This document shows positions 7,501 to 60,790 of a DNA stretch of 64,000 bases, piece by piece. The stretch's first letter is position 1; each line of letters begins with the position of its first letter. This stretch comes from a virus (taxonomy: Duplodnaviria > Heunggongvirae > Uroviricota > Caudoviricetes). Position numbers and translations under genes: made by a program. The notes below the pieces were generated by a model that saw only the letters and a program-made list of their open reading frames with translations, was not told the origin of the DNA and ran no database searches. Location: the IMG/VR virus record IMGVR_UViG_3300042894_003937. The stretch is one strand, 5' to 3'.

Positions 7501-7525
7501 TTATATATCATGATGTTACATGTTT

Positions 7526-10525: not shown

Positions 10526-10543
10526 AGAACTATATATTAAATC

Positions 10544-10996: not shown

Positions 10997-11011
10997 ATAT
11001 TATTTTATTTT

Positions 11012-14202: not shown

Positions 14203-14216
14203 ACTCTATATATTAT

Positions 14217-14636: not shown

Positions 14637-14644
14637 ACCTAATC

Positions 14645-15490
14645 TTATTTTTCTTTAATCATAATACCCACCGAATATATACCTTGCTTATCCGAATAAG
14701 AACCAAATAAAGTATCATTCACCACCGAATATAACGGGAAATCACTAAACGCCTCATCAGTATAACCATGATGTAATCTAAACCTAACCTGACTTGTCGA
14801 ACGACCATCTTTCCTCGGATTACCAAATCCAATAATCTGATACCTATTATGTAATAACTTTAATAACGGTATGTAATAATCCTTTATATCATCCCAAGTG
14901 AAAGTATCACTCTTAAGCGCATATTGATTACTAAGTGATAACCAAATCGCAGTAGTATCATCCTCTGAACCTCTAGGAATAAAAATACGAAAACCCTCAT
15001 CCAATAAATAAGCTAAACAACTTTCTACGAAATCCGTTAACTCATCCTTATCTATACTCTCATTAAACATCTTCAAATGTTTCATACCATCCTTTTTAAC
15101 CACAATCGAAAAACTATAAAATAACATATCATCTCGTAAATCCTCTAACCGATCTATATCCTTAATATGTATATCATCCGAATAAGTCGCTTCTATCCTA
15201 ATAATCGATGAACTGCCCTCATAACCCACCTGATACCTATTAGATAACATCTGTACAAAAGGAATAATACGATTCTTTACCGATGACCACTCAACATCAT
15301 CATGATGAATCCTATTGTTTCTAACCGACCTAGGCGATAACAAAACAATCTTATACGATGTAGTAAATCCCCACACCGATACCGACCACTCATCATCGAT
15401 AAGATAAGCTAAGTAATCATTAGCAAACTCCTGTAACTCTGCCCTTTTATCAGTAGATTCATCATTGAAAGCTTCATTCAAATACTTCAT
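14645..15490 (-). CDS. Fam-A paralog, fused doublet (internal MKHLKMFNES leader)
   Basis: First unit EFANDYLAYLIDDEW..SSVKNRIIPFVQML; second unit starts with an intact internal leader MKHLKMFNESIDKDELTDFVESCLAYLLDEGF..DDIKDYYIPLLKLL. Confidence 0.7.
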   Translation of the reverse strand: MKYLNEAFNDESTDKRAELQEFANDYLAYLIDDEWSVSVWGFTTSYKIVLLSPRSVRNNRIHHDDVEWSSVKNRIIPFVQMLSNRYQVGYEGSSSIIRIEATYSDDIHIKDIDRLEDLRDDMLFYSFSIVVKKDGMKHLKMFNESIDKDELTDFVESCLAYLLDEGFRIFIPRGSEDDTTAIWLSLSNQYALKSDTFTWDDIKDYYIPLLKLLHNRYQIIGFGNPRKDGRSTSQVRFRLHHGYTDEAFSDFPLYSVVNDTLFGSYSDKQGIYSVGIMIKEK

Positions 15491-15924
15491 ACCTTTTCAC
15501 CTTTAATTTTAAATTGAATTGTATAAATCTTATAATCATCACGAAGACGACTAGAAGGAACAATCTGCTCCGATATAATATCATCCATATTAAACCAATC
15601 AGAATATGTACTCTCCAAACCAATTATCTCAATTCTTACATTAGGCGAAACAAGCCTACGATCCATCGTAACTAAATCATACCCATTTCTTAAATGTGTC
15701 AAAAATGGTATAACCTGATCCTTTATCTGACCCCACCTCTTATTAGCAAATAATCTAAATGATAACGTCACCTTATAATCTATAATCTTTAAATCAAAAT
15801 AATCTGGTGAAACCAAAACCCTTAAACCATCATCCATCAAATAAGCTAAGTGAGTCTCACAGAAATCTTGTATATCTTGCTCAGTTAAATCTTTATTCTC
15901 ATTATATCTTCTCAAATGTTTCAT
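15487..15924 (-). CDS. Fam-A paralog
   Basis: MKHLRRYNEN..DFCETHLAYLMDDGL..GQIKDQVIPFLTHL. Confidence 0.7.
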   Translation of the reverse strand: MKHLRRYNENKDLTEQDIQDFCETHLAYLMDDGLRVLVSPDYFDLKIIDYKVTLSFRLFANKRWGQIKDQVIPFLTHLRNGYDLVTMDRRLVSPNVRIEIIGLESTYSDWFNMDDIISEQIVPSSRLRDDYKIYTIQFKIKGEKV

Positions 15925-15927
15925 ACA

Positions 15928-16464
15928 TTATTTATTATTTTCAAAGTTAATTAAAATCGGATCTTTGTAAATATATCCATTTTCAATTCTCTGTGTTTGT
16001 TTAGCATTAGGCCAATAAGAAACAAGTTTATATAAACTTTCACATACTTTTATTGAATTTTTATATTCTTTTCTTACTTCACCATTTACTATCCATTTAT
16101 TTCCATGTACATATACCTGATTCGATTTCTTTTCTTTAATATCTTCCATATTATTATAAAATATTATCTCACTATGCCACTGAATATCAAAAAATATACT
16201 ATACTTTTCCATTCCTAGCTTTGTACCCTGATATATCACATCTTCAATATCATCTATATTATGATGACCTGTCAAAATAATATCAATATCAAGTGGTGTA
16301 CCTTCATCATTTAGTAATTTATTCGCAAAACTTCCTAATAACAAAACATCAAATTTTTCCGCATTCGGTATTTTAAAAAAATCCTCTCGCCAAGCAAAAA
16401 ATGACTCTACACTTGGCGACTTCCAATTTATATCTATATCTATTTTTCCGTATTTTATATTCAT
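15928..16464 (-). CDS. putative nucleotidyltransferase (pol-beta superfamily motif GS-x15-DIDI)
   Basis: LLLGSFANKLLNDEGTPLDIDIILTG fits hG[GS]..[DE]h[DE]h; further acidic residue in FFDIQ; 178 aa. Confidence 0.45.
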   Translation of the reverse strand: MNIKYGKIDIDINWKSPSVESFFAWREDFFKIPNAEKFDVLLLGSFANKLLNDEGTPLDIDIILTGHHNIDDIEDVIYQGTKLGMEKYSIFFDIQWHSEIIFYNNMEDIKEKKSNQVYVHGNKWIVNGEVRKEYKNSIKVCESLYKLVSYWPNAKQTQRIENGYIYKDPILINFENNK

Positions 16465-16590
16465 TATTCTAATTTATTTTATCACTCACTAAACCCCTAC
16501 GTGCGTCAGCACGTTTACGACTCCGACGACCCACATTCTTCTTGCCGAAGGCAACGACTCCACCGAAACCCAATTGGTCCCACCACAATC
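16465..16590 (-). other. GC-rich intergenic island with three short palindromes (candidate structured leader / ori / pac-like element)
   Basis: acgtgcgtcagcacgt, ttgccgaaggcaa, ccaattgg; direct repeat acgactcc x2; compositional outlier in an AT-rich genome; immediately upstream of the nucleotidyltransferase start. Confidence 0.4.
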
Positions 16591-17034
16591 CTAATCCTTC
16601 TTTAAACCCTTAACCGTCAACTTAACCGTAGTAACCAAAAAATCCGGTGCTCCATCATTTACTATCTGATCCACCGTAAATACCTTCTTATTTATATCCA
16701 ACTGCTCGGTACTATAAAAATGAATCCATTCAGACAAATCATACCTCCTAGATAATATACGAACCAACGGGATAAACCTATCCATCACCAAAGAATAATC
16801 ATATAACTTATTAGTAAATCTGCCTATTTGGTCTGGACGACCATCAGTTAAAGATAACCTTATATCAAACTCACCATTCCAAGCCGGTCTTATCTCATAC
16901 GTAAATCCATCATCCGACAACGGTGCCAAAAATTGCTCACATAAATCATCCAACCCATCCTGTAAATCATCACCTTTCAACCTAACATAAAAATCTGACT
17001 CCATAAAACTTTTTAAATACCTCATCATATACAT
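16591..17034 (-). CDS. Fam-A-like paralog (divergent)
   Basis: MYMMRYLKSFMES..DLCEQFLAPLSDDGF..MDRFIPLVRIL. Confidence 0.65.
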   Translation of the reverse strand: MYMMRYLKSFMESDFYVRLKGDDLQDGLDDLCEQFLAPLSDDGFTYEIRPAWNGEFDIRLSLTDGRPDQIGRFTNKLYDYSLVMDRFIPLVRILSRRYDLSEWIHFYSTEQLDINKKVFTVDQIVNDGAPDFLVTTVKLTVKGLKKD

Positions 17035-21799: not shown

Positions 21800-22390
21800 T
21801 TAGTTGTATACTCTGATTTCTATTGGACTTGATTGTAAAAGGTCATTAAACGGTGTATTATCATAAGAAGTATGTAACTGCATAGTTCCTGTAGTTGTTA
21901 AATCAATTCCTAATATATAGGTGCCACCACTTCCACCATAAGGTAAACCCATAGCCCATGTTTTATTAGTAAACGCTCCATTTATTATATATCCTCCTAC
22001 TCCATTATAAGAAAAAGTAGGTGTAAATCCTAAAGTATTTTCTAACACAACAGCAGTTGGAGCTGCTGTACCACTCTGTGTTAATAAAGCAGTATAAACT
22101 GAGTATAACGGTAATGCAGATGTTCCGGAAGTACCATTTAAACCAGAGGTTCCAGAAGTACCATTTATACCAGAAGTTCCAGAGGTTCCAGAGGTTCCAG
22201 AAGTACCATTTATACCAGAAGTTCCATTTATACCAGAAGTACCAGAGGTTCCAGCTATACCAGAAGTTCCAGAAGTACCAGAGTTTGATTGTGTTAAACC
22301 AGCTAACTGATCTTCTAAATAGTGAAAGTTGTTATCCATTTGAGCAACTGATAATGCTCCGTCTTGTTCTGATCTATATGTAATACCCAT
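21800..22390 (-). CDS. collagen-like repeat tail-fibre-like protein, short paralog (Gly-Thr-Ser triplets)
   Basis: N-terminal 33 aa identical to the 22497..24305 product; (GTS)n/(GIN) triplet run; shared C-terminal domain ending PIEIRVYN. Confidence 0.7.
22287..22390. repeat. about 104-bp near-identical repeat (fibre gene 5' end), copy 1
   Basis: Matches 24202..24305 apart from a few substitutions. Confidence 0.6.
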
Positions 22391-22455
22391 TTTTTATATT
22401 TTTTTTATACTACTCTTTTATTTTGATATAAATAAATGTAGCTCTCTGTGAAACA

Positions 22456-22485
22456 GTGTATAAAATCTGTACGTTTTTTATACAC
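22456..22485. promoter_or_regulatory. palindromic element P3 (gtgtataaaatctgtacgttttttatacac)
   Basis: Copy of P1/P2; lies in the upstream region of the short fibre gene. Confidence 0.45.
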
Positions 22486-22496
22486 CTTTAACAAAT

Positions 22497-24305
22497 TTAG
22501 TTATATACTCTTATTTCGATTGGAGTTCTTAATATTAAATCGTCTGCACCAGTACTACTCTGATTAGTTGCTATATATATATCATTAGAAGTAGTGTCTT
22601 CATTATCAACATAAAAGTCATAATCATTGATAGCCCAATGATTTTTACAAAAGAACACTACGGTTTTTAATAAAGGAAATCCACCAGTACTACTTAAAAA
22701 ATATAAACCGGGAGAGTCTCTATTCCAAACGGGAGTAAAACCTAAAGTATTTTCTAACACAGAGGCTGTTGGTGATGCTGTACCACTCTGTGTTAATATA
22801 GCGGTATAAACTTTATATTTTGGTGCATAAGCCGTAGTTTGAACCGAATTATCTGGGAATGTTATACTTCCAGTTGTACCAAATACCCAGTTTTCAGGTC
22901 CATCATTATCACCAGTTTGTATAGTAACAGTTCCATTATCAGCAATCACTCTACCACTCTGATAACGAATTATTTCTATATCTATTCCAGTTATAGCCAA
23001 ACTCGCAGTTGGTGCATTCTGGTCCACGGTTAAAACTATTGGGTTTGACTGGACCTTATTCGTGATATTTAGGCTTACTGCTGTAGTTGGATCGTAAAAC
23101 ACTGTAAATATGTCTGTTGCTACTTGATAACCGTTTATGAAATTTACTAGAGTTGAATCTGGATTAGTAATAGTTATCAGATTGCCAGACCATGTAGCAG
23201 AATCATAGTTAGATCCTACAGAGCAACTTGCAGAATCTTGAGTGTATAAATTCTTTGAATTTATTTGTACTGTTTTACTAGTGTCACTAACTTTTAAGTT
23301 ATTATCTTCACCACCAATGAATAGATCAGTTGCACTATCATCGATAGGACCACCTGCACGAATATGTATATGATTAGGACTTCCTTCAGTAGGATCTAAT
23401 ATAATGTATTGGTCAGTTTCTAAAGAAGAATCTGGTTTTAATACTATTATTGGACCAAGACCAAGATTGACTGATTCTATTTGACTACCATTAGAATTTA
23501 TAGCACCAGTAATATTCACATCACCATCTACATCTAAAGCTACTGATGGATTGGTTGTTCCTATACCTATCTTACCATCATTAGTAATTCTCATTCTTTC
23601 ATCACCATCAGTTTGCACGATTACGTTTCCTCCCGCGGTGCCTCCACCTCCTGCGTTTATAACGATATTACCACCAGTATTAGCTCCGTAACCAGATTCA
23701 ATGTATACTTCACCACCATAACCATTATTACTTTGTCCTGCATATATTTCAACAAAACCACCATCACCTGTATCTGTGTATCCACCTCTTATCTTAACTG
23801 TACCTCCTTCTGAGATACCTTCTCCTGCATCAACTTTAATATCTCCACCATTTTGTCCTTTACCGGCCCATAGGTAAATGTCTCCACCTTCGCCACTGTA
23901 GGTAAGTCCATTTTGATAACTATCACCACCAGATATGACTAATCTTTCAACGGTCGGAGCAGATCCTGTTCCATCTTGAGTTGATATGATTTTTTGGTAT
24001 ACACTTCCTTTTTCAAATTGAAGGTTATCTCCGCTTCCTGTTCTTTGGTTACCTGGTAAGAATGGAAAACTAATTGCACCGGTTGTACCAAACCCTGCAG
24101 GTCCTGTAGCACCTTGTGGTCCAGTAGGTCCTTGAGGTCCTGTAGCACCATTTATACCAGAAGGTCCTGTAGCACCGGCAGGTCCAGTAGCACCAGAACC
24201 AGAGTTTGTTAAACCAGCTAACTGATCTTCTAAATAGTGAAAGTTGTTATCCATTTGAGCAACTGATAATGCACCGTCTTGTTCTGATCTATATGTAATA
24301 CCCAT
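22497..24305 (-). CDS. collagen-like repeat tail-fibre-like protein, long paralog
   Basis: 602 aa; G-X-Y collagen-like repeats (GATGPAGATGPSG..); Gly-rich beta-rich middle; C-terminal domain shared with the short paralog. Confidence 0.75.
   Translation of the reverse strand: MGITYRSEQDGALSVAQMDNNFHYLEDQLAGLTNSGSGATGPAGATGPSGINGATGPQGPTGPQGATGPAGFGTTGAISFPFLPGNQRTGSGDNLQFEKGSVYQKIISTQDGTGSAPTVERLVISGGDSYQNGLTYSGEGGDIYLWAGKGQNGGDIKVDAGEGISEGGTVKIRGGYTDTGDGGFVEIYAGQSNNGYGGEVYIESGYGANTGGNIVINAGGGGTAGGNVIVQTDGDERMRITNDGKIGIGTTNPSVALDVDGDVNITGAINSNGSQIESVNLGLGPIIVLKPDSSLETDQYIILDPTEGSPNHIHIRAGGPIDDSATDLFIGGEDNNLKVSDTSKTVQINSKNLYTQDSASCSVGSNYDSATWSGNLITITNPDSTLVNFINGYQVATDIFTVFYDPTTAVSLNITNKVQSNPIVLTVDQNAPTASLAITGIDIEIIRYQSGRVIADNGTVTIQTGDNDGPENWVFGTTGSITFPDNSVQTTAYAPKYKVYTAILTQSGTASPTASVLENTLGFTPVWNRDSPGLYFLSSTGGFPLLKTVVFFCKNHWAINDYDFYVDNEDTTSNDIYIATNQSSTGADDLILRTPIEIRVYN
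24202..24305. repeat. about 104-bp near-identical repeat (fibre gene 5' end), copy 2
   Basis: Matches 22287..22390. Confidence 0.6.
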
Positions 24306-28484: not shown

Positions 28485-28781
28485 TTAATTAAAGCAGATA
28501 TAATTACCTACATAATATCTATTAAAAGTTTGAGGATCGATATAAACCGTTATAAATGTACCATTCTGATTTATATCAAATGAATATTGAGTGTTTCCAT
28601 TATTTCTTTTAGAAGCGATTAAGCCACAACCATAATATCTTTCAGTATAATTTGGATATAAAAATCCAATATTGTAATAAACTGGATTTATATAATTTGG
28701 AATTTGATAATTTGGAATTGGTTCTACAACACATCCACTTAATGTAAATGATAGTACAATTGCTAATATAATTTTTTTCAT
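28485..28781 (-). CDS. lipoprotein (signal peptide plus lipobox LSGC)
   Basis: MKKIILAIVLSFTLSGCVV. Confidence 0.55.
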   Translation of the reverse strand: MKKIILAIVLSFTLSGCVVEPIPNYQIPNYINPVYYNIGFLYPNYTERYYGCGLIASKRNNGNTQYSFDINQNGTFITVYIDPQTFNRYYVGNYICFN

Positions 28782-30711: not shown

Positions 30712-31041
30712 TTAGTTAAGGTTTTGTAGTTGTAGTTGTAATCTTTCGATTTGTTGAGTAATCAATCTTCTTTGAGCTTCTCTTTGAGCTAAACGAATAG
30801 AATCCCATTGTGTTGGTATTTTAGTAGATACTTTTGTTTCTGTATCAAAGATATAAGCACTTAGTATACCACAAGATGTTGTTGTAGCTGAGAATTTCTC
30901 GATAGCTTCGTTTATAGTAATTTCACTATTGCTATCACGTGTTTCTATAATACACATATCATCCTCGGTTAAAGGGACGTTAAATCTGTTGTAAGCACTG
31001 TTTAAAACTAATCTTCTCATTTCATTTTCATTTAAGTACAA
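30712..31041 (-). CDS. hypothetical protein
   Basis: 109 aa. Confidence 0.5.
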   Translation of the reverse strand: MYLNENEMRRLVLNSAYNRFNVPLTEDDMCIIETRDSNSEITINEAIEKFSATTTSCGILSAYIFDTETKVSTKIPTQWDSIRLAQREAQRRLITQQIERLQLQLQNLN

Positions 31042-31570: not shown

Positions 31571-32395
31571 TAATCCTTTTATGACAGTTGTTCCTGCACC
31601 AAAGACGTTGTTATTACCATAACGTGATACACCTTTATCAGCCCACTTCTCTTCAATCTCAAGTTCTTTCAATCTCAAGATTGCTGGTTGAGACATAAGT
31701 GCTTTAGCTTTCGTATCATACTCAGCTGTTTCAAAACGTCCTCTAGCTGCTTCTACTGTAGATGCTGCGATATTTGTTTCATAAGCTTTCAATTTCTCTG
31801 CTTTCAAGTTAAGTTGCTCTTGTTCTTGTTTAGCGATAATAGCTGAAGCAATAGCAGATGGTAAATCAACATCGGTAACTTCGGCAAATGCAACGTGAAT
31901 ATTTTCTTTAGCTAGTGAAGTTCTAATACTTGTTTCGATTTCACTTTCAACGTTTTCACGTTTAGCTCCATATATTTGTTCGTATCCATATCTACCGATA
32001 GCATCTTTAATAGCTCCGGATGATTGTACATCAATTACACTGGCTTCATAGCCTGGTCCGTGTTTAAGGTGGACAGATGGTGATTTACCTCGTAGTAAAG
32101 CGGCAGATACGGTTACAGATACGGTTACTTCGGTTCCGTCTTTATCAAGTACTTTGGCGGTGTACTTATAAGATTTATATTGTACATTATAGGTAATCAT
32201 TTCTTTCCAAGGAAGGTATGGTGTATACCCTTCACTATAGGTCATGGTTTTATCGATACCGCCGCCGAAGCTATCGAAGAGGAAACCTTCTTCTCCGGGT
32301 TTGATTGTTTTACCACTAAAGGCAAAGATTAAGAATGTGATTACAAGACCGAGTCCTGCTAAAATTTTTACAATTGTAGAAAAGTTTAAGTTCAT
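31565..32395 (-). CDS. SPFH/band-7 (stomatin/prohibitin-like) membrane protein
   Basis: N-terminal TM; band-7-like core; coiled-coil tail EQEQLNLKAEKLKAYETNIAAS. Confidence 0.6.
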   Translation of the reverse strand: MNLNFSTIVKILAGLGLVITFLIFAFSGKTIKPGEEGFLFDSFGGGIDKTMTYSEGYTPYLPWKEMITYNVQYKSYKYTAKVLDKDGTEVTVSVTVSAALLRGKSPSVHLKHGPGYEASVIDVQSSGAIKDAIGRYGYEQIYGAKRENVESEIETSIRTSLAKENIHVAFAEVTDVDLPSAIASAIIAKQEQEQLNLKAEKLKAYETNIAASTVEAARGRFETAEYDTKAKALMSQPAILRLKELEIEEKWADKGVSRYGNNNVFGAGTTVIKGLK

Positions 32396-32610
32396 TATTT
32401 TTTTGTTTTTTTTGTTATTAAATATTGTTGAAAGTCAGGATATTTGAAGATTGCCCATATGGAACCTAATGTTCCTAAAATTCCTATGATTTTAAGAGGT
32501 CTGGCGAGTCTTAGCATTTCGATTGATAGAAATAATAGGAAAGCTACTATTACCATATAAGCCATAAAGACAAAGATGTTGTCACGTGCTGATTTAAAGT
32601 ATTTGTTCAT
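32395..32610 (-). CDS. small 2-TM membrane protein co-transcribed with the SPFH gene
   Basis: 71 aa; ATGA overlap. Confidence 0.5.
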   Translation of the reverse strand: MNKYFKSARDNIFVFMAYMVIVAFLLFLSIEMLRLARPLKIIGILGTLGSIWAIFKYPDFQQYLITKKTKK

Positions 32611-33680: not shown

Positions 33681-33896
33681 CTATATTCCTATTTGTTTTA
33701 ATTTTTGTAATCGATTATTAAGTTTTATTTGGTCTTCGTGTATTTCTAGTTCAGATTCAACGAATGGGAAATTAGAGTTCTCGACATAAACAAATAAAGC
33801 ATCTATATTAGTTATAATACGTCTTGTGCCGGGAATACTTTTAATCTTTACTATATCACCAACATTCATATTAGTCAATGTTTTGAAATTCTTCAA
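33681..33896 (-). CDS. small protein with tail motif (..LQKLKQIGI)
   Basis: 71 aa. Confidence 0.45.
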   Translation of the reverse strand: MKNFKTLTNMNVGDIVKIKSIPGTRRIITNIDALFVYVENSNFPFVESELEIHEDQIKLNNRLQKLKQIGI

Positions 33897-34182
33897 CTGC
33901 TAAGTTATATGCGTCTTGTAGATTTTTATCTGCAGGTCTATTGATAGTTTTGATTAGTTTTAATACTTGACTATGTTTTAACAAACCTTGTTTGATTTGA
34001 TTATCAGTAGGGTTGTGGTATCTATTTACAACCTTTAACAGAGACTTAAACTGTTCTGCTAATGAAGTAGCAGTATGTGCCAGTTTTAGTTCTTCTAAAG
34101 CTTTATTATAAGTAAAGTTAGTTGCTTTGAAGTTATTCATTTCTTCTTTATGTATTTCTTGTAATTCTTTGATAGATGTCAT
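33871..34182 (-). CDS. hypothetical helical protein
   Basis: 103 aa. Confidence 0.45.
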   Translation of the reverse strand: MTSIKELQEIHKEEMNNFKATNFTYNKALEELKLAHTATSLAEQFKSLLKVVNRYHNPTDNQIKQGLLKHSQVLKLIKTINRPADKNLQDAYNLAVEEFQNID

Positions 34183-34227
34183 ATGTCGTTATTTAATACA
34201 ACAAAGATATGGATATTATTTTATAAT

Positions 34228-34238
34228 ATATACATTAT
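34228..34238 (+). promoter_or_regulatory. ATATACATTAT box 1 nt upstream of the ATG
   Basis: Recurrent start-proximal motif. Confidence 0.35.
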
Positions 34239-34239
34239 T

Positions 34240-34686
34240 ATGAAACATTTAAAAAAATTTAATGAAAGTTTAGAACCAGTTGAGATCGATGAGTTAAAAG
34301 ACTTCTGTGAGACATCACTCGCTTATCTATTAGATGATGGGTATCAAGTTAGTGTATATGAATCAAGATTTAAAGATGTATCTGTAAGAGATAAAGTAAA
34401 GTATCCTGAGAAAGAACATACAATTGTAAGTTTGGGTTTAAAAGGAAAAATGGGTTATAGGTTATTCGATTGGAATGATATAAAAGATTATTACATACCA
34501 TTTCTTCAAATGTTAGTAAGAAGATATGAATTACTACCTTTCGGAATGTATGATAAGATTTGTTATTTTAATACCGAAGGTGGTTTTAGATATTTATCAT
34601 TAGATCAAGTTATAAATGATAGGGTTGGCTCAGAACTTGGTAGTCGTTTGTGGGGAATAAATATAATGATAGTAGATAAGATATGA
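34240..34686 (+). CDS. Fam-A paralog (start at MKHLKKFNES)
   Basis: DFCETSLAYLLDDGY..NDIKDYYIPFLQML; the ORF-track start upstream is unlikely. Confidence 0.7.
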   Translation: MKHLKKFNESLEPVEIDELKDFCETSLAYLLDDGYQVSVYESRFKDVSVRDKVKYPEKEHTIVSLGLKGKMGYRLFDWNDIKDYYIPFLQMLVRRYELLPFGMYDKICYFNTEGGFRYLSLDQVINDRVGSELGSRLWGINIMIVDKI

Positions 34687-35123
34687 AACATTTGAAAAGA
34701 TATAATGAAAGTTTACAACCTAATGAGGTTGACGAGTTAAAAGACTTCTGTGAGACTTCATTGGCTTATCTATTAGATGATGGATATAATGTTGATGTTT
34801 CTATAAGAAATTCAGTAGGGTATCCAGGAAATAATCAAGTAATCGTAAGTTTGGGTTTACCTACATATAGTGAAAGTGGTTTACTGGATTATAAAAGGTT
34901 CCATTGGAATGATGTAAAAGATTATTACATACCATTTCTTCAAATCTTAGTAAGAAGATATGAGTTGCTGCCTTATAGAGGTGAGGGTTATGTTTATTTT
35001 AATGGTGAGATGGGATTTGACTATTTCTCATTAGATGAAGTAATAGATGATACGGTCAGTGGTATGAATCACATTGGTAGTAGTTTATGGGGTATAAATA
35101 TAAAAATAGTAGATAAGATATAA
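34683..35123 (+). CDS. Fam-A paralog
   Basis: MKHLKRYNES..DFCETSLAYLLDDGY..NDVKDYYIPFLQIL; ATGA overlap. Confidence 0.7.
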   Translation: MKHLKRYNESLQPNEVDELKDFCETSLAYLLDDGYNVDVSIRNSVGYPGNNQVIVSLGLPTYSESGLLDYKRFHWNDVKDYYIPFLQILVRRYELLPYRGEGYVYFNGEMGFDYFSLDEVIDDTVSGMNHIGSSLWGINIKIVDKI

Positions 35124-35179
35124 ACTATCTCCTTGAGACATATACACCCAGACTCAAACTTTTTAAAAATAATTTTAAT

Positions 35180-35190
35180 ATATACATTAT
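35180..35190 (+). promoter_or_regulatory. ATATACATTAT box overlapping the ATG
   Basis: Recurrent start-proximal motif. Confidence 0.35.
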
Positions 35191-35965
35191 GAAATACTGT
35201 AGAAAACAAAGTGTAAGTTCAGGAAGAACTTTACGCTATATTAAAAGTTTTAATCAAACACTTGAGAACTACTCAACTGTTGCCAATACATTTAGAGGAT
35301 TACGACCATCTATTAAAAATCTTGCCATATTAACCGCACAGAACCCACATGGTGAGCAACATTCAAATGAGTTTAACAAATCTGCGAACCAAGAACTTGA
35401 AGAGGTTCTATCTAAAGCTAAATTAGGTTATAAAAAGGTTAAAGGTTCGTATGTTCAAAAAGAGAAATCATTTATTGTTTTTAATATACCTTATGCAGTA
35501 GCTATAGAAATTGGTACAAGATTTAAACAAGATAGTATTATCTATGGTGAGATTAACGATAAACAAAGTTATGATGATGATGAATCAATGTTATTTAAAA
35601 TTATAGGAACTGATCAAAGTAAGCCAGAAGAATATAAGAAAGTTTTGGCAGAAACTAGTGTTTTTGTTAGTAGAGATAATGCGGATGATTTTTATAGTGA
35701 GATTAAAGGTAGGAAATTTATATTACCATTTTATGATGTGATTGATCAATCTGATGATCCTACGATACTTAATATAAAAAAGGATTATACTGGAAGTAAA
35801 TGGAAAGGTGGTAAAGCGGAACCTACATCAACAACAACTTATCGACTTCCTGATTGGTTATTAAAATGGCAGCAAGATCAAAGGATAAAAGAACATGAGG
35901 AAAAACATTCAATGTACAATAAATCCAAAAAACCTTTCATTAGAAAGGTAACTGGTGATAACTAA
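35189..35965 (+). CDS. hypothetical protein
   Basis: 258 aa. Confidence 0.5.
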   Translation: MKYCRKQSVSSGRTLRYIKSFNQTLENYSTVANTFRGLRPSIKNLAILTAQNPHGEQHSNEFNKSANQELEEVLSKAKLGYKKVKGSYVQKEKSFIVFNIPYAVAIEIGTRFKQDSIIYGEINDKQSYDDDESMLFKIIGTDQSKPEEYKKVLAETSVFVSRDNADDFYSEIKGRKFILPFYDVIDQSDDPTILNIKKDYTGSKWKGGKAEPTSTTTYRLPDWLLKWQQDQRIKEHEEKHSMYNKSKKPFIRKVTGDN

Positions 35966-35979
35966 AAGTAAAGTATAAT

Positions 35980-37230
35980 ATGATACAATCTATAATAGGA
36001 ACAAGTTTTACCGGAGGTTATAATCCACCTTTACCATTTGACATAACTGCTAACTGGAGTTTGACAACACCTGCTGTTGTAGATGAGGTATCTTTTAAAA
36101 CTTTTCTAGAAAGTGGTGAAGATGGAGATGATGAGACAAATGAGTTAACAGGTGTAGTCATTACTGACTTCTTACTTGAAGGAAACAGGTTAACTTGTAA
36201 TCTTTCTGCTAGTGGTTATAATTTTTACCTTAGTTATACAGAAGTTTCAGTTGTAAATAGTATAGGTAATATTGTAGGATTAGAAAATTTGAATTTAAGT
36301 GTTAATCAAATAACATCATTCGATCCCTCTATTGCATTACCTAGTTCATTACTTAGTTTAGCTTTAGGTGTCAATCAAATAACATCATTCGATCCCTCTA
36401 TTGCTTTACCTAGCAGTTTACAACAATTAAGTTTAAGTGATAATCAATTAACATCATTTGATCCCTCTATTACTTTGCCTAGCAGTTTACAACAATTAAG
36501 TTTAAGTGATAATCAATTAACATCATTTGATCCCTCTATTGCTTTACCTAATTCATTGTTAGAATTAAGTTTAAGTTATAATCAAGTATCGATGAACTTT
36601 ACCCCAAGTTTACCATTACCCAGTTCATTACAATATTTAAGCTTGGATAATTCTAATATAGTTACATTTGATCCAGCATATGATTTGCCTAGCAGTTTAC
36701 AACAATTAAGTTTAAGTGATAATCAAATAGTGAATTTTACTCCAAGTAACTCGCTTGGGGGTGGATTACAATATTTAGATTTAAGTGATAATCAAATAGT
36801 AACATTTGATCCTGTTGCAGCATTACCAAGTTCATTACAATCAATATTCTTAAACCGCAATCAAATTGTGACATTTGATCCCACTATAGCTTTACCTACT
36901 GGATTAACAAGTTTAGATTTAACTGGTAATCAAATTGTGACATTTGATCCCACTATAGCTTTACCTACTGGATTATTATACTTACAATTAGCGGATAATC
37001 AAATTGTTACATTTGATCCTAGCATTACGTTACCAAATTCATTAATTGTTTTAAATTTAGTTAATAATCAAATGACAACAGCTGGTTATACTGCATCTGA
37101 ACCATGGGCAAATGCTATGTCTGTGATTCCTGGGAGAGGTAGTGTATATTTTGGTGCTAATCCAAATTCTGTAAGTGGAACAAATCTTGGAACAATATTA
37201 CAATCTAAAGGTTGGAGTGTAAACGTATAA
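35980..37230 (+). CDS. leucine-rich-repeat protein (about 14 LRRs of LSLSDNQLTSFDPSIALPSSLQQ type)
   Basis: Regular 22-residue LxxLxLxxNxL repeats; N-terminal 16 aa identical to the next gene. Confidence 0.7.
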   Translation: MIQSIIGTSFTGGYNPPLPFDITANWSLTTPAVVDEVSFKTFLESGEDGDDETNELTGVVITDFLLEGNRLTCNLSASGYNFYLSYTEVSVVNSIGNIVGLENLNLSVNQITSFDPSIALPSSLLSLALGVNQITSFDPSIALPSSLQQLSLSDNQLTSFDPSITLPSSLQQLSLSDNQLTSFDPSIALPNSLLELSLSYNQVSMNFTPSLPLPSSLQYLSLDNSNIVTFDPAYDLPSSLQQLSLSDNQIVNFTPSNSLGGGLQYLDLSDNQIVTFDPVAALPSSLQSIFLNRNQIVTFDPTIALPTGLTSLDLTGNQIVTFDPTIALPTGLLYLQLADNQIVTFDPSITLPNSLIVLNLVNNQMTTAGYTASEPWANAMSVIPGRGSVYFGANPNSVSGTNLGTILQSKGWSVNV

Positions 37231-37244
37231 AAATAAAGTATAAT

Positions 37245-37982
37245 ATGATACAATCTATAATAGGAACAAGTTTTACAGGAGGTTATAATCCACAAGGTCC
37301 ATCATTTAGACTTATGTTTACAGATATAAGTTTTGCTAATACCCTAGTAGGGGATGCGTCAAATGTTAATGATTGGAATACATATTTAGATTTACCTCTT
37401 TTGGGTACACCTTTCACTAGTGTAAACGTTAGTGGTGATGAAGTGTCTTTGTATGGCGGAGTAGGTATTACATTAAAAACTTCTGCATTTACTATTAATC
37501 TAAAAAAAAATGAAGTTCCTTATTTAGTTTCTGTAGATGATGAAAGTGGAGTGATTGTGGAATTACAAGAAGAAACTTTTTCAAGTCAATCATTATTAAC
37601 AACTGTATCTTTACCACAACTAATTACTGCAGATATTTTCTGTTTTAATGGTTGTGACAATTTAGCCATTATTAATTTACCACAGTTAACAACTGCAGGT
37701 GTTGGCTGTTTTAATACTTGTGACAATTTAGCCATTATTAATTTACCACAGTTAACAACTGCAGGTGCTGGATGCTTTGCTGGTTGTAGTTTAACAACAG
37801 TAACATTACCTCTCTGTACAAACTTAGGTGGCGGTGTTTTAAATGATAATGTGTTTTCAGACATAATTGGAAACACAATTTCTTTAACTATACCTGAGTC
37901 TTTAATGACTTGTAATTCAGGAAATCCAGATGGTGATATTCAATACTTGCAGGCAAATAACACAGTAACAATAATAAGTTAG
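37245..37982 (+). CDS. repeat protein with Cys-containing LRR-like repeats (INLPQLTTAG.GCF..C.NL); start placed at MIQSIIGT
   Basis: N-terminal 16 aa and about 45 bp upstream identical to the 35980 gene. Confidence 0.6.
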   Translation: MIQSIIGTSFTGGYNPQGPSFRLMFTDISFANTLVGDASNVNDWNTYLDLPLLGTPFTSVNVSGDEVSLYGGVGITLKTSAFTINLKKNEVPYLVSVDDESGVIVELQEETFSSQSLLTTVSLPQLITADIFCFNGCDNLAIINLPQLTTAGVGCFNTCDNLAIINLPQLTTAGAGCFAGCSLTTVTLPLCTNLGGGVLNDNVFSDIIGNTISLTIPESLMTCNSGNPDGDIQYLQANNTVTIIS

Positions 37983-39099: not shown

Positions 39100-39636
39100 T
39101 TATTTAAAGAATGATTTTAATTTGGTTAGAACAGATTTATTTTCTTGTTTATATCCATCTATTATAAATTCAAACTCTGTTATATAAGATTCTAAAACAT
39201 CATCAGTATCAGTATCATAATAAAGACCTGATTTTATATCATCATTGATTAGTTTATTTACTTGGTAAAATAATTCTGTTTTACGATGAGGCCAGTGTTG
39301 TCTAGCAGCTTCTAAGTCACGTGTTACTTCTATTATGACATCTTTTTTATTTTTACGAGTATGTCCCATTTGTCTAGCATATTGTTTAAGTTCATATTGA
39401 TTAGTAAGTCTGGTTAAGAATGGTATCATATGGTCTTTTATATCGGACCATAATCTAGGATTCTCATTTAATTCTAGTGTAAGTTTGAAACTTAAACCTA
39501 AACCACTTCTAACTAACGTTATAGAAATATTTAATTCTTCATCTAATAGATAAGCTAGATTCATTTCACAGAAGTCTTGTAGTTCTTCTTTGAAGGTGTC
39601 ACCTACTGCTTCATTGAATGGTTTAATATGTTTCAT
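39100..39636 (-). CDS. Fam-A paralog
   Basis: MKHIKPFNEA..DFCEMNLAYLLDEE..SDIKDHMIPFLTRL. Confidence 0.7.
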   Translation of the reverse strand: MKHIKPFNEAVGDTFKEELQDFCEMNLAYLLDEELNISITLVRSGLGLSFKLTLELNENPRLWSDIKDHMIPFLTRLTNQYELKQYARQMGHTRKNKKDVIIEVTRDLEAARQHWPHRKTELFYQVNKLINDDIKSGLYYDTDTDDVLESYITEFEFIIDGYKQENKSVLTKLKSFFK

Positions 39637-42516: not shown

Positions 42517-43131
42517 ATGAAATACTTAAAATCATTTAATGAAGGTTCTACTACGACTGATGTAGATTATTATAAATCCGCTATACATTACTTCAATAAT
42601 AATTTGAATAATGATAGAGCATTAGAATATATCAATAAAGCCATTGAGTTATCAGATAGAAAAAGTAATCCATACTATTTCGCTTTAAAACAAATGATTG
42701 AGGAAAAAGGACCTGAACCAAAGTTTGAAAGTAATGAGCAACAGATAGAAGCTTTAAAAGATTTATGTGATACTAATCTAGCTTATCTAAAAGATGATAA
42801 TTTCATTGTAAGGGTTGTTCCTTCTAGACCTGATAGTTTCTATATATTTATTGGATCAGATGGATTTAATCCAAGTGGTGAAAGATATTATTTTAGTTGG
42901 TTATCTGTAAAGAATCATTTAATACCATTCTTTCATTACCTACTAAAAGATTTTAAGATACAAGATAATCCAAAGGGTACTAATAACAGAGGTGTATCAT
43001 TTGTTAGTTATGGTACTTTTAATGATACTAATGAGTATGTTAAGGTTGATCAAATCTTAAATGATGAGATAGAAGATGATAAACAAATAGCGGGTATATC
43101 TATTTATATTAAGTCGGAATACTTTATTTAA
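42517..43131 (+). CDS. Fam-A paralog with N-terminal helical (TPR-like) extension
   Basis: MKYLKSFNEG..DLCDTNLAYLKDDNF..LSVKNHLIPFFHYL. Confidence 0.6.
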   Translation: MKYLKSFNEGSTTTDVDYYKSAIHYFNNNLNNDRALEYINKAIELSDRKSNPYYFALKQMIEEKGPEPKFESNEQQIEALKDLCDTNLAYLKDDNFIVRVVPSRPDSFYIFIGSDGFNPSGERYYFSWLSVKNHLIPFFHYLLKDFKIQDNPKGTNNRGVSFVSYGTFNDTNEYVKVDQILNDEIEDDKQIAGISIYIKSEYFI

Positions 43132-49592: not shown

Positions 49593-50018
49593 TTATAATT
49601 GAATTGGTAATAAGTGTTCTGGTAAGTATTGTTCTGGACAAACGATTGTATAACTATCTATATTGTATTCATACTTTAATAGGTAGTTTATATCTTCCGC
49701 CTTCTTATCATGATAATTGATTATCACATAAGGAATCTTAACTTTATTATCAAGTTTGATACGTATCTTCTGAAAGTCCATTTGTAAGTATCTATATTCT
49801 CCATCAACGGCTCCCATCGCTTTGACATCAGTAGTGGTATAAGTACCAGAACTAGCGGATCCTGCAATCAAAAAGAATGATGCTGATGAATAGGTTTCCT
49901 TTGTCTCACTTTTGACAAGTTGACGTAAAGGAATTTTTTTTGTATGTCTATCTGTATAAGGTTGACCACACGAAGTTAAAAGCACTATGGCTACAAGTAA
50001 AAGGATTAGTTTTTTCAT
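49593..50018 (-). CDS. lipoprotein (lipobox LTSC)
   Basis: MKKLILLLVAIVLLTSCGQ. Confidence 0.55.
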   Translation of the reverse strand: MKKLILLLVAIVLLTSCGQPYTDRHTKKIPLRQLVKSETKETYSSASFFLIAGSASSGTYTTTDVKAMGAVDGEYRYLQMDFQKIRIKLDNKVKIPYVIINYHDKKAEDINYLLKYEYNIDSYTIVCPEQYLPEHLLPIQL

Positions 50019-50304: not shown

Positions 50305-50691
50305 TTAATTTAATTCCCAACATAAGTCAGATAAAAGTTTATCTCTTTCATCTATCGACTGTATGATTTCTAGTTTATGTTGTTCTGATTTTTCACCATT
50401 ATCTTTCCAACAAGTTTCTTGGTCGAAATCATTTAATGTAGCTGATCTAACTAACTCGTTATAATCTTCATCACGTAGATAACCTTTTAGTGGCATTAAA
50501 CGACCTACACATGTATTCCATGTTAGTTTTCTACCATCATAGGTGATCCAATACAAATCGTGTTCGTCTTCACCTATCGCTACTAATCTTTCGATTTTAT
50601 GGCTTTGAGTGATTACGAACTGGCCTTTTAGTGATTCAAACTCTTGTTTTACTCTTTCTTCTGGTGTCATATTATATTTTTTCGTGTTCAA
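50305..50691 (-). CDS. hypothetical protein
   Basis: 128 aa. Confidence 0.5.
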   Translation of the reverse strand: MNTKKYNMTPEERVKQEFESLKGQFVITQSHKIERLVAIGEDEHDLYWITYDGRKLTWNTCVGRLMPLKGYLRDEDYNELVRSATLNDFDQETCWKDNGEKSEQHKLEIIQSIDERDKLLSDLCWELN

Positions 50692-51043
50692 TTAGTCTAG
50701 AGGCAGTAGCATAATTTGTTGCTAAAGGTATATCATAAACATTACATAGTCTCATAAGCATGTGAATATCTACTGAATGTGGATGTGAAAACATTGGATC
50801 TATAAAGAATAGAACCATATCAATTTTACCTTCTACGATAAGAGTCGCGATTTGTGCGTCTCCACCTAATGGTCCCGACTTCAAACATTCGACTTCTAAA
50901 CCACCTGCGTGTATGATATGTGAACCGGTTGTACCGGTTGCGAATAATTTTACATCTTTTTGTTTAAAGAATTTTAATCGTTTCATAACGAAAGCGACCA
51001 TATCGGCTTTCTTATTATCGTGTGCAATGATTGCTATGTTCAT
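50672..51043 (-). CDS. mgsA: methylglyoxal synthase
   Basis: IALIAHD.., ATGTTG, SGPLGGDAQI and the FF.DP...HPHSVD..L.RL....IP.ATN block are collinear with E. coli MgsA; 123 aa. Confidence 0.85.
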   Translation of the reverse strand: MNIAIIAHDNKKADMVAFVMKRLKFFKQKDVKLFATGTTGSHIIHAGGLEVECLKSGPLGGDAQIATLIVEGKIDMVLFFIDPMFSHPHSVDIHMLMRLCNVYDIPLATNYATASRLIEHEKI

Positions 51044-53116: not shown

Positions 53117-53701
53117 ATGAAACATTTGAAAACATTTGATGAGATTACCGAATCTTATAATAAACCAAGAGCTGGTGGTAAGAAACGCTGGTCGGTCAAA
53201 TATAAGAAGTCAATAAATTGCTCTAATGCAAAGGGGTTTTCTCAAAAGCAGTATTGTAAGAGGAAAAGAAAAGGTGGTTCTTATAAGAATGAGTCTGTTG
53301 AATCTGTGATGGGTGGTTTAATTCAAAAAGTTGGTAAGGTTATTGAAGGTGTTGATGAATTGTGTGAACAACATTTAGTTTACTTACAGGATGATGGGTT
53401 TAAATATTTCATTGATATAAATGAAGATCTAAACAGTGATTTATATAATCAAGGTGATGTTATCTTTATTTTAGAGAGAAATCGAGAAGAATTTTCTTGG
53501 GATCAGGTCAAGGATAGGTTTATACCATTTTTGATTATGTTGAAAAGGGATTTCAAACCGTTATCAGATATTGAATTCGCTTTGGGTACTAACTGGAGGT
53601 ATGCGACTAATAATGAGAAGTTTGAAATAAATCTTCTTATAAATGATGCTATTGATTCGTATAGTAACATAGTAGAAATAATTATAAAGATAAACGTATA
53701 A
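53117..53701 (+). CDS. Fam-A paralog with basic N-terminal insertion
   Basis: MKHLKTFDEI..ELCEQHLVYLQDDGF..DQVKDRFIPFLIML. Confidence 0.6.
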   Translation: MKHLKTFDEITESYNKPRAGGKKRWSVKYKKSINCSNAKGFSQKQYCKRKRKGGSYKNESVESVMGGLIQKVGKVIEGVDELCEQHLVYLQDDGFKYFIDINEDLNSDLYNQGDVIFILERNREEFSWDQVKDRFIPFLIMLKRDFKPLSDIEFALGTNWRYATNNEKFEINLLINDAIDSYSNIVEIIIKINV

Positions 53702-53702
53702 T

Positions 53703-54212
53703 TTATATATCTAATTTTACTTGATTTTTCTTTACCTTTATAATAACACCAATACTTATCAAATCTGGATCTGGTGTCCACTTATAATATATATGATCCT
53801 TCCAATAACCTTCTGAATCAAATACATCATCATTAATGACTCTGGCATAACTGAAATTTTTACTAACATTTACAAATGAATAATCGTTCTTTTGACGGTA
53901 TCTAAATCTAACACTTGGTTCACGTGAATCTACATCACCATCGAAAAAAGTACCTATATCATATCTATTAGATAATAATTGTAAGAAAGGAATATAATAA
54001 TCCTTTACATCATCCCATTTAAAAAACTCTCTACCATTATTCTTTGCTAAAAAAATACCAAACTGTCCCGTAGTTGCCCTTGCACGTGGATCGTCACCGC
54101 CCCTAATAGTAACGTTGAAGCTCTCATCCATTAGATAAGCTAATGATGATTCACAGAAGTCTTGTAGGTCTTCTTGGGTTACTCCCTCGTTAAATCTTTT
54201 CAAATGTTTCAT
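53703..54212 (-). CDS. Fam-A paralog
   Basis: MKHLKRFNEG..DFCESSLAYLMDESF..DDVKDYYIPFLQLL. Confidence 0.7.
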   Translation of the reverse strand: MKHLKRFNEGVTQEDLQDFCESSLAYLMDESFNVTIRGGDDPRARATTGQFGIFLAKNNGREFFKWDDVKDYYIPFLQLLSNRYDIGTFFDGDVDSREPSVRFRYRQKNDYSFVNVSKNFSYARVINDDVFDSEGYWKDHIYYKWTPDPDLISIGVIIKVKKNQVKLDI

Positions 54213-54604
54213 TTTAGAAAGAATACTATTTTTTCGACAATCTTTTCTTGTGGAAGATTTTCTAATTCATCATATGAAAGATAAAGTTCTTTGCTATAAT
54301 TACCCACAAAATTTCGATTTGAAACTTGTACTATAATGAATTTATCAGAACCATCTTCTAAACTATTTATTTCATAAACATTATTAAATCTATGTAAGAA
54401 TGGTATAATCTGATCTTTGATTTCTGACCACGGTCTACCGTGTCCATTAGATTGGTAAAGGTATAGTGTAACAAATAAATCTGATCGGTCATTATCAATT
54501 CTAACTTCTAATCCTTCATCCATTAGATAAGCTAGATGGGTTTCACAATAATCTTTTAGATCATATTCGTTTATACTTTCATTAAATCTTTTCAAATATC
54601 TCAT
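54209..54604 (-). CDS. Fam-A paralog
   Basis: MRYLKRFNES..DYCETHLAYLMDEGL..SEIKDQIIPFLHRF. Confidence 0.7.
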   Translation of the reverse strand: MRYLKRFNESINEYDLKDYCETHLAYLMDEGLEVRIDNDRSDLFVTLYLYQSNGHGRPWSEIKDQIIPFLHRFNNVYEINSLEDGSDKFIIVQVSNRNFVGNYSKELYLSYDELENLPQEKIVEKIVFFLK

Positions 54605-55254: not shown

Positions 55255-56358
55255 ATGAATAAATTAGATAAACAATACACAGACTTGCTACTAGACATTT
55301 TACATAATGGTCAAGCAAAAGGTGATAGAACCGGTACAGGAACAATCTCAGTATTCGGTAGACAGATCAGACATGATATGAAGGATGGTTTTCCTTTACT
55401 AACAACCAAAAAGATGCCATTCAAAACAATCGTAACAGAATTGTTATGGTTTTTAAATGGTGATACTAATATAAAGTATCTAGTTGATAATGGTTGTAAC
55501 ATTTGGAATGGTGATGCTTATAAAAACTATGTCACAAAATTCAAAGAGTATTGGAGTGGAAAAGGATATGATGTACCTACAATGGAAACCTTCGTCGATA
55601 GAATTAAGAATCAACAAGGATTTTCTGAAGAGAATGGTCAGCTAGGTCCAATTTACGGAGCTCAGTGGAGATCTTGGAGAGTTGGTAAGGGAATTGAAAC
55701 TACATTAAAAACTGAAGATGGTGAATCTATATATGAGGCAGGTTCAATGTATATTGACCAAATTGCAAACCTAATCAAAGATTTAAAAACAAATCCAGAT
55801 TCTAGACGATTGATGGTTTCTGCTTGGAATGTGGGAGAATTGGAGAATATGGTTTTACCACCTTGTCATTATGGATTTCAAGTTTATACCAGAGAGTTAG
55901 ATGCAGAGACTAGATATAACATCTGGTTTAATAACAATTATGAAACAGGTATGGAAAGATTCTTTGATCCTAACAAACTACCTGATTATGATAATACATA
56001 TTATATACCGACACCTACCAGAGCAATCTCACTTATGTGGAATCAACGTTCAGTAGATACATTCTTAGGATTGCCATTTAATATAGCTTCTTATGCTCTT
56101 TTATTAGAGATTATTGCAAGAGAAGTGAATATGGTGCCGGATCAATTGATTGGAAATTTAGGTGATGTTCATTTATATTCTAATCATATTGAACAAGCTA
56201 AGGAACAGATTGCGAGAAAAGGATTGGATTTACCTAGTATAATTATAAATAAAGTTATGAAGAAAGCAGATGATTCATTACCTTTATACAATATAACTGA
56301 CTTTAAATTAAATGATTATAAGTCACACGAAACAATTAAAGCAAAATTAAGTAATTAA
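55255..56358 (+). CDS. thyA: thymidylate synthase (ThyA-type, with insertions)
   Basis: DRTGTGT, catalytic LPPCH, WNQRSVDTFLGLPFNIASYALLLEIIA and GD.HLYSNH are collinear with ThyA; 367 aa, so about 80-100 aa of inserts. Confidence 0.92.
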   Translation: MNKLDKQYTDLLLDILHNGQAKGDRTGTGTISVFGRQIRHDMKDGFPLLTTKKMPFKTIVTELLWFLNGDTNIKYLVDNGCNIWNGDAYKNYVTKFKEYWSGKGYDVPTMETFVDRIKNQQGFSEENGQLGPIYGAQWRSWRVGKGIETTLKTEDGESIYEAGSMYIDQIANLIKDLKTNPDSRRLMVSAWNVGELENMVLPPCHYGFQVYTRELDAETRYNIWFNNNYETGMERFFDPNKLPDYDNTYYIPTPTRAISLMWNQRSVDTFLGLPFNIASYALLLEIIAREVNMVPDQLIGNLGDVHLYSNHIEQAKEQIARKGLDLPSIIINKVMKKADDSLPLYNITDFKLNDYKSHETIKAKLSN

Positions 56359-60340: not shown

Positions 60341-60341
60341 T

Positions 60342-60788: not shown

Positions 60789-60790
60789 GT

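Follow-up and report, generated by a model that had tools for sequence, protein, structure and literature searches.

In phages K1-5, K1E and SP6, the binding proteins gp46 and gp47 dock on the adaptor gp37 through the peptides MAKLTKP and MIQRLGSSLVK, and on the secondary receptor-binding proteins (RBPs) of Klebsiella phages "conserved peptides" as short as 7 amino acids (aa) act as docking elements (PMC6872550). A Klebsiella-phage conserved peptide has been experimentally validated in this role (PMC13352976). The K1-5 peptides were also read in AY370674, where gp46 starts with MAKLTKP and gp47 with MIQRLGSSLVK. Here, we describe a stretch of 64,000 nucleotides (nt) of DNA from a virus of the class Caudoviricetes (IMG/VR record IMGVR_UViG_3300042894_003937; the window), in which two adjacent open reading frames (ORFs), ORF A and ORF B, start with the same decapeptide, MIQSIIGTSF (the head), on different bodies. 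By analogy with the branched systems of K1-5/SP6 and of Klebsiella phages, we lean toward the view that the head is a docking peptide which attaches exchangeable adhesins to the virion.

ORF A (35980-37230, + strand) encodes 416 aa and is followed head to tail, after a 14-nt gap, by ORF B (37245-37982, + strand; 245 aa). The N-terminal start MIQSIIGTSFTGGYNP is common to both. BLASTP aligned the two proteins with 17 of 19 identities at the N terminus and found nothing significant past residue 19. A repeat search revealed a 66-nt direct repeat (family D4) at 35963-36028 and 37228-37293 on the + strand, the copies of which lie 1265 nt apart and are identical at 64 of 66 positions. Each copy begins exactly at the TAA stop of the preceding gene, which for the second copy is the stop codon of ORF A, and runs through a 14-nt spacer (AAAATAAAGTATAAT in the second copy) into the first 16 codons, giving 17 nt of upstream sequence and 49 nt of coding sequence. 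The 32-nt core of the repeat occurs at two sites only in the 64 kb, a count reached by 0 of 100 shuffles, and an identical copy of the gene pair was present in a second metagenome sample. The sequence-only reading of this DNA had remarked on the identical N termini and differing bodies, which this analysis bears out; its further statement that about 45 bp are shared upstream was wrong, as only 17 nt precede the ATG and the other 49 nt are coding.

In AlphaFold models built with homologue alignments, the two proteins had the same plan: from residue 19-21 on, a small alpha/beta N-cap leads into a solenoid, which ends in a C-cap. In ORF A, the head (35980-36009) is followed by a G/P-rich linker, TGGYNPPLP (36010-36036), the N-cap domain (36037-36270), twelve 23-residue leucine-rich repeats (LRRs) (36271-37074), and the C-cap (37075-37227). 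The body matched the Pfam families LRR_4 (106 bits, 6e-31) and LRR_8 (88.5 bits, 2e-25) well above the cutoff of 27, and with its tandem LxxLxLxxN repeats, within the 20- to 29-residue range, and its curved solenoid, ORF A is a classical LRR protein. The model had a mean predicted local distance difference test (pLDDT) score of 92.0 and 12 regularly spaced strands, with residues 1 to 14 scoring below 50 and lacking secondary structure. Foldseek matched it to Leptospira LRR proteins and equally to YopM and SspH2, and also to SlrP, with E values down to 6e-9; as modeled, the fold indicates a binding scaffold and says nothing about the site of action. Within 36337-36588, adjacent 69-nt LRR units were 84-88% identical in DNA, including two successive SSLQQLSLSDNQLTSFDPSI units. 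Because neighboring units are this similar and the number of repeats differs in relatives (P0127, P0146, P0164, and L046), the LRR array of ORF A may be undergoing ongoing expansion and contraction.

In ORF B, the head (37245-37274) and the linker TGGYNPQGPS (37275-37304) precede an N-cap domain (37305-37544), a series of BspA-type LRRs (37545-37874) that includes three 66-nt repeats at 37610-37807, and a C-terminal cap (37875-37979); at the DNA level the repeats fell into families D3 and D5. The body matched Pfam LRR_5 (PF13306; 51.9 bits, 8.8e-14) above the gathering score of 27.7, and its fold is BspA-like. The best Foldseek matches were PcpA, the Bacteroides proteins BACCAC_03700, BACOVA_04585, and BT_1240, and TpLRR, with E values of only 1e-3 to 1e-2 and probabilities of 0.98-1.0. 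The mean pLDDT was 90.6, with residues 1 to 10 averaging 49 and showing no secondary structure. In the models of both proteins the head is thus disordered, and a low-confidence head ahead of a confident solenoid is what a tethering peptide and its linker would be expected to look like. Since ORF B matches LRR_5, both bodies belong to the LRR superfamily, in different, nonalignable subfamilies. The sequence-only reading had set classical 22-residue LRRs in ORF A against Cys-containing repeats in ORF B. The period in ORF A is in fact 69 nt, or 23 residues, repeated about 12 times; the difference between the bodies stands in that they cannot be aligned, although the Cys-containing 22-residue repeats of ORF B are LRRs as well, of the BspA type.

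A scan of Joint Genome Institute (JGI) metagenomes with the back-translated head, which yielded the occurrences on new bodies, contributed to the count of proteins that carry MIQSIIGTSF in related metagenomic genomes (MIQ proteins, encoded by MIQ genes), which came to at least 20 distinct ones of five or more body types. Nine have ORF B-type (BspA) bodies (P0001, P0002, P0003, P0013, P0015, P0085, P0092, P0097, and P0109), with MIQSIIGTSF, MILSIIGTSF, or MIQSVIGTSF as the head, and LRR bodies of the ORF A type follow it in P0121, P0127, P0146, and P0164. Laminin_G_3 (LamG) bodies follow it in L042 (236 aa) and L044 (349 aa), and bodies of no known family in L042 (382 aa), L044 (266 aa), and L040 (a 126-aa module); two MIQ bodies had no match in Pfam, PHROG, and PDB sequence searches. 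Modules were also joined into chains, comprising head, uncharacterized module, LamG, and LRR in P0130; head, uncharacterized module, and LRR in P0136; and head, LRR, LRR, and BspA in P0121. Across an alignment of 14 sequences, 8 of the 10 head positions were invariant. The replacements seen in heads of the family (Q3L, I5V, and T8S) were conservative, and the linkers varied, for example, TGSYNPQGPS, KKSELEPA, and KSTSPFTGYTGD. The spacer AAAATAAAGTATAAT upstream of ORF B was identical in L035, L036, L040, and L045; in L037, L038, L042a/b, and L044b/c the upstream DNA was unrelated and the ten head codons persisted. A short N-terminal peptide is therefore conserved within one phage group on proteins that are otherwise unrelated, as in docking peptides.

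One of the four metagenome matches to the head, L041, was a chance match. The back-translated pattern gave 0 matches in IMG/VR, and INPHARED DNA and protein searches with the locus and its neighbors returned nothing useful or similar among the sequences queried. A GTDB genome scan for the head gave two matches (MIQTIIGTTF and MIQRIIGTSF), both in short or interrupted frames; as these are chance matches, no prophage or host assignment was drawn from them.

Syntenic contigs carried different bodies at the same site, as seen between L040 and L042 and, behind the fiber gene described below, among L044, L045, and L042. The relative L035 was strongly mosaic with respect to the window, its ORF B orthologue lying on the other side of a block at 39.1-41.1 kb, and in L037 and L038 the MIQ gene adjoins FolD; the MIQ genes evidently shift genomic position between relatives. 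The closest view of such a rearrangement came from L046, a 3.6-kb ENA contig syntenic with the window. The two sequences were 89.7% identical in the DUF3293 gene and the ORF A start, 91.5% identical in the BspA body, and 98.8% identical in the convergent gene downstream. In place of the two genes of the window, and also behind the DUF3293 gene, L046 has one 685-aa gene of the order MIQ-LRR-LRR-BspA. Its module boundary reads ...GWTVQGNVDLPP-FRLMF..., compared with ...GWSVNV-stop, AAAATAAAGTATAAT, ATG-MIQSIIGTSFTGGYNPQGPS-FRLMF... in the window. In the window, a stop, the 14-nt spacer, and a second head thus fall exactly where the L046 modules meet. What is gained or lost at this module boundary is the head cassette, and the ORF B body functions in both settings, inside a longer protein and with a head of its own. 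The sequence-only reading had suggested exchangeable binding modules with a conserved 5' end and a variable body. The number of proteins and body types found with the head supports this, and the body swaps at syntenic sites and the fusion of A-like and B-like bodies in a near-identical relative add further evidence.

The origin of the locus was indicated by a larger contig. Positions 27245-47982 of the window were 100% identical to part of a 111,255-bp JGI metagenome contig (3300042890, Ga0453678_0000075). Outside the window, the same contig (L044) encodes, at 2810-13367, a 1446-aa fiber-like gene (L044:2810-7150) and three consecutive MIQ genes, the first of them 18 nt behind the fiber gene. 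The first MIQ gene (1439 aa) comprises the head, an uncharacterized module, and four complete LRR modules in tandem; the second (349 aa) comprises the head, an uncharacterized module, and LamG; and the third (266 aa) comprises the head and a body of no known kind. An MIQ gene lies 18-79 nt behind the big fiber gene in all four contigs with enough context (L044, L045, L042, and L039). About 70% of the fiber alignment columns were identical in all three full-length copies, along the whole length to the C terminus, and the MIQ gene behind this conserved fiber was completely different in each of these three contigs. The N terminus of the 1446-aa fiber (...LSIAEMDNNFLYLEE) resembles that of the fibers of the window. 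The latter are encoded by two fiber-like genes (21800-22390 and 22497-24305, − strand) with the first 33 residues in common, similar C-terminal ends, and differing middles that are collagen-like or Gly-rich; the 602-aa window fiber matched the Bdellovibrio fiber Bd2133 (PDB 8ond).

ORF A and ORF B themselves adjoin the DUF3293 gene, and the junction in front of ORF A retains the fiber 3' end. The 37 nt before ORF A (GAAAGGTAACTGGTGATAACTAAAAGTAAAGTATAAT, 35943-35979, + strand; aligned with L044 and L045 as AGAAGATAACTGGTGCTAACTAAAAATAAAGTATA(G/A)T) match the stretch that joins the fiber gene to the MIQ gene in L044 and L045, down to the final fiber codons (TAACTGGTG-TAACTAAAA), and are overlapped by the last codons of the DUF3293-family gene (35189-35965, + strand; 258 aa; Pfam E value of 2.7e-12). 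Because this 37-nt remnant matches the fiber 3' end and spacer, the ORF A cassette was, on the evidence of the alignment, copied from the fiber locus to its present site behind the DUF3293 gene. The link to "the fibers", which the sequence-only reading had drawn as a similarity of pattern, is therefore closer than guessed, with paralogues directly behind the big fiber gene and the ORF A junction coming from that site.

The bodies also belong to a wider pool. Phage contigs of IMG/VR, together with the protein collection, showed the same LRR and BspA bodies behind at least six unrelated N-terminal heads, for example, MxxNKRxLKAYVRYDGSGR...ECCN, MAIPSRQIGWS...NLLWQISKQL, MNIEEVRKQSIEQFAALRRKAL, MKRINIISETIYKGQ, and MALVRNSI, and neighboring genes in those IMG/VR contigs also have heads in common. 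The body of ORF A (residue 20 on) occurs behind other heads in other sequences, with cellular homologues in Flavobacterium genomes, and most of the 297 homologues of ORF B in the protein collection have other N termini. In L007, the gene of a BspA-bearing protein is the second behind the tape-measure gene (PHROG E value of 6e-26), a place typical of tail-tip genes. The PHROG families matched by the phage LRR/BspA proteins are annotated "unknown function". In an unrelated IMG/VR phage contig, L032:7950-10093 holds two adjacent genes that share the head MALVRNSI and then diverge, one having an ORF A-like LRR body and the other a 424-aa body; this head is reminiscent of MALxxLV, a docking heptapeptide found in KP34-like phages.

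We propose that ORF A and ORF B are members of a modular, multi-copy family in which a constant decapeptide and a short, flexible Gly/Pro/Thr-rich linker precede at least one self-contained binding module, be it a classical LRR solenoid, a BspA-type LRR, a Laminin-G lectin, or another. The decapeptide would dock these otherwise unrelated adhesin or receptor-binding modules on one common virion partner, most likely the conserved ~1440-aa fiber whose gene directly precedes MIQ genes. New specificities may arise as body cassettes are swapped, fused, split, and re-copied behind the unchanged head, with the 66-nt segment (stop, spacer, head, and linker) serving as the joint for such rearrangements and the ORF A/ORF B pair representing a satellite copy of the arrangement at the fiber locus. 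Docking to the fiber or virion and host-surface binding by the bodies are both presumed in this scheme. A more specific version, in which one conserved fiber carries, by means of a single tag, at least five different nonenzymatic adhesins, solenoids or lectins that are probably monomeric, as a combinatorial LRR-based system distinct from trimeric tailspikes, with fission and fusion tuning the docking sites per specificity and a cassette pool common to at least six head types, is put forward tentatively and is in our view the less probable outcome.

Several observations weigh against this proposal. The neighbors of ORF A and ORF B are metabolic and hypothetical genes rather than a structural module, with the MIQ-linked 1446-aa fiber gene far off, outside the window, and the fiber-like genes of the window itself (21800-24305) about 11.6 kb away. 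Neither a docking partner nor a T4gp10-like branching domain was identified, although no profile-profile search for gp10-like domains was made, and the big fiber had no Pfam, PHROG, or PDB sequence match. LRR, BspA, and LamG bodies are normally monomeric, and the known docking-peptide systems use trimeric beta-helix tailspikes; the bodies here matched LRR, BspA-LRR, and Laminin_G_3, with no match to depolymerase or tailspike families. Besides surface proteins, the solved structures closest to ORF A in fold include injected effectors (YopM, SspH2, and SlrP). Finally, we infer the association of the MIQ proteins with the virion from sequence, and the host and virus type are deduced only from promoter-like motifs, lipoprotein signals, and homologues.

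Some of these points would fit other roles for the head. The internal proteins IPI, IPII, IPIII, and Alt of phage T4 carry an N-terminal capsid-targeting sequence, a tag of ~10 residues on unrelated proteins encoded in hyperplastic loci. The decapeptide could likewise be a virion-loading signal; the MIQ proteins would then be packaged and injected, and their LRR bodies would bind host proteins as effectors. The T4 proteins, too, combine a short conserved N-terminal tag with otherwise unrelated sequences and plastic loci, and both the injected proteins among the nearest folds of ORF A and the position of the pair outside the structural gene module would suit such effectors. We nevertheless consider this unlikely. 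Neither MIQSIIGTSFTGGYNPPLPFDITANW nor ...NPQGPSFRLMF contains the L/I-x-E site of a prohead protease, there being no Glu near the tag and none before residue 35 in ORF A. One member reaches 1439 aa with four LRR modules, and the bodies include the Laminin_G_3 lectin and BspA-type modules typical of extracellular binding. In addition, paralogues sit directly behind the fiber gene and homologous bodies occur in tail modules. A tag for a nonvirion fate (chaperone, sorting, or export) seems less likely still; the modules might then, for example, serve superinfection exclusion or matrix binding, at the envelope of the infected cell or in the lysate. Such a fate would agree with the place of the pair among nonstructural genes, probably cotranscribed with the DUF3293 gene, and with the typical cell-surface placement of BspA-like and LRR proteins in Bacteroidota. 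It leaves the fiber adjacency unexplained, and by inspection the head resembles neither a Sec nor a lipoprotein signal, having no basic n-region (no K/R), no lipobox Cys, and a hydrophobic run of about five residues (IQSII only), while genuine lipoprotein signals occur elsewhere in the window. No N-terminal export signal is known to have this form.

The identity of the 66-nt copies raises another question, namely, whether the segment acts as nucleic acid, as a translation start for mRNA lacking a Shine-Dalgarno sequence and/or as a recombination handle, the peptide itself having no function. Such a role would account for the inclusion of 17 noncoding nt in the identity, for the recurrence of the spacer AAAATAAAGTATAAT in L035, L040, and L045, and for the nearly constant codon choice across the first 10 codons (8/9 identical, versus 59-65% in the bodies), independent synonymous draws having a chance of 6e-4 of matching all nine consensus codons. 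The excess of synonymous identity is, however, weak for any single pair (~p = 0.07), the ten codons are conserved in L037, L038, L042a/b, and L044b/c where the upstream DNA is not, the other listed genes of the window do not use this start, and the head replacements are conservative at the protein level. We rate a purely nucleic-acid role as improbable, about on a par with virion loading; a recombination-handle role is compatible with docking rather than an alternative to it. Far more doubtful than any of these is a recent local duplication by which the second gene inherited a copied 5' end without being a functional unit, the scenario that the sequence-only reading had named as its own refutation. 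The 64/66 identity of two copies 1265 nt apart would be expected from it. It is rejected because ORF B is under purifying selection, with ratios of nonsynonymous to synonymous substitution (dN/dS) of 0.43 against L035 and 0.37 against L037, and because the head is retained in genes whose upstream DNA differs. Moreover, ORF B with the same head and linker is a stand-alone gene in L035, L036, P0003, and P0013, and both the spread of the head over the family and the identical pair in the second sample contradict such an origin. Docking of exchangeable adhesins thus remains the reading we favor.

The genome is probably that of a large, AT-rich, uncultured phage of Bacteroidota (Flavobacteriia-like) hosts, judging from its sequence features. 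The window has 30% GC, no tRNA, and no Shine-Dalgarno sequences, and it encodes lipoprotein-type signal peptides, for example, at 28485-28781 and 49593-50018. TAnnTTTG, the Bacteroidota -7 promoter box, was about 2-fold enriched in 60-nt upstream windows and clustered 20-32 nt before the ATG; it lies upstream of 14 genes (e.g., 6115, 30712-31020, 32395-32610, 33871-34182, and 50672-51043). A giant eukaryotic virus was considered in view of the low GC, the paralogue families, and LRR matches to giant-virus proteins, and was set aside because of the lipoprotein signals, the TAnnTTTG motifs, the Flavobacterium homologues, the SLT-domain genes present in relatives, and the sharing of modules with tailed-phage contigs.

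The DUF3293 gene, ORF A, and ORF B form a unit with gaps of 14 nt each. The motif TTAATATATA (35175-35184, + strand) starts 14 nt before the ATG of the DUF3293 gene and is a candidate promoter of this unit. The window holds 14 copies of the pattern TTWATATATA, of which this motif is one, against 4.7 expected; comparison with ORF starts showed copies at 2948, 3393, 35175, 42503, 53103, and 59916 that begin 14 nt before an ATG, and a further site lies, for example, at 31091. The pattern may be a phage promoter or mark leaderless starts, and its recurrence counts among the features that point to a Bacteroidota phage. A scan for sigma-70 promoters and terminators was uninformative, giving 30 promoter-like sites versus 29 expected. 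At least 23 copies of a ~140-aa paralogue domain (MK[HY]LKxFNE ... DFCExxLAYLLDDGY), several of them two-domain fusions, are also encoded in the window, in a − strand array at 8410-17034 and at 34183-35123, 39100-39636, 42517-43131, 53117-54604, and 59930-61261; of two members examined, 34183-34686 had no Pfam or PHROG match and 34683-35123 had no INPHARED match. A family of small proteins of ~65-80 aa starting with MKV[IVKL]C[IVN] has seven copies in the window (8189, 33236, 46792, 47383, 47845, 48411, and 62978), several with similar upstream sequences. The thymidylate synthase at 55255-56358 has 367 aa and covers the entire 266-position Pfam model, implying an insertion of ~100 residues.

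Very little is known of how phages of marine and freshwater Bacteroidota recognize their hosts, and phage LRR/BspA proteins have no assigned role. If the head is a docking tag, a simple rule at the sequence level would reveal which receptor-binding proteins a whole group of uncultured large phages possesses. The family would offer natural cases in which cassettes are exchanged or concatenated and genes split where modules meet, and the tag would be a minimal, ready-made "plug" with which binding modules could be engineered onto these phages. The docking-peptide principle, documented so far for enterobacterial podo- and myoviruses with enzymatic tailspikes, would moreover reach nonenzymatic repeat-protein adhesins.

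Among known systems, the mosaic adhesive trimer fiber Bd2133 of Bdellovibrio shares a fiber-stalk motif with the 602-aa fiber of the window; this match concerns the fibers and not ORF A or ORF B, the MIQ proteins having no stalk. Both bodies resemble the BspA/PcpA/TpLRR-type and Leptospira LIC-type surface LRR proteins in fold and Pfam family, but those proteins are cellular and carry signal peptides or anchors, whereas the modules described here are phage encoded, lack signal peptides, and have the MIQ head. The T4 internal proteins differ in that here no protease cleavage motif follows the tag, the binding domains are large and of extracellular type, and the genes are linked to a fiber gene. 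The resemblance to K1-5, K1E, and SP6 is closer: adjacent genes encode different binding proteins with a very short conserved N-terminal peptide on unrelated bodies, and the peptide, like MIQSIIGTSF, is conserved across phages of different specificities. MIQSIIGTSF and MIQRLGSSLVK even have MIQ and the pattern hydrophobic-G-S/T-S-hydrophobic in common, a similarity that may be due to chance and is too short to evaluate. Unlike in those phages, the same peptide is found on both genes, and on at least five genes per genome, LRR and lectin modules take the place of trimeric enzymatic tailspikes, no adaptor of the gp37/T4gp10 type was identified (no profile-profile search being made), and the genome is large and AT-rich rather than T7-like, with docking a proposal here. 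The Klebsiella phages of the KP32, KP34, Menlow, and PhiK64-1 groups similarly have a group-specific peptide of at least 7 aa on secondary RBPs beside a primary anchored fiber, a specificity domain exchanged horizontally as a module, and several binding proteins per genome (PMC6872550). In contrast to them, the present system has no recognizable branching domain, its bodies are nonenzymatic repeat or lectin modules that are also strung together in chains and that close relatives carry either fused or split, and it has satellite copies far from the fiber locus. The principle of modular receptor binding through docking peptides is thus known; what would be new, if the analogy holds, is its use in an uncharacterized phage group and with LRR and lectin bodies.

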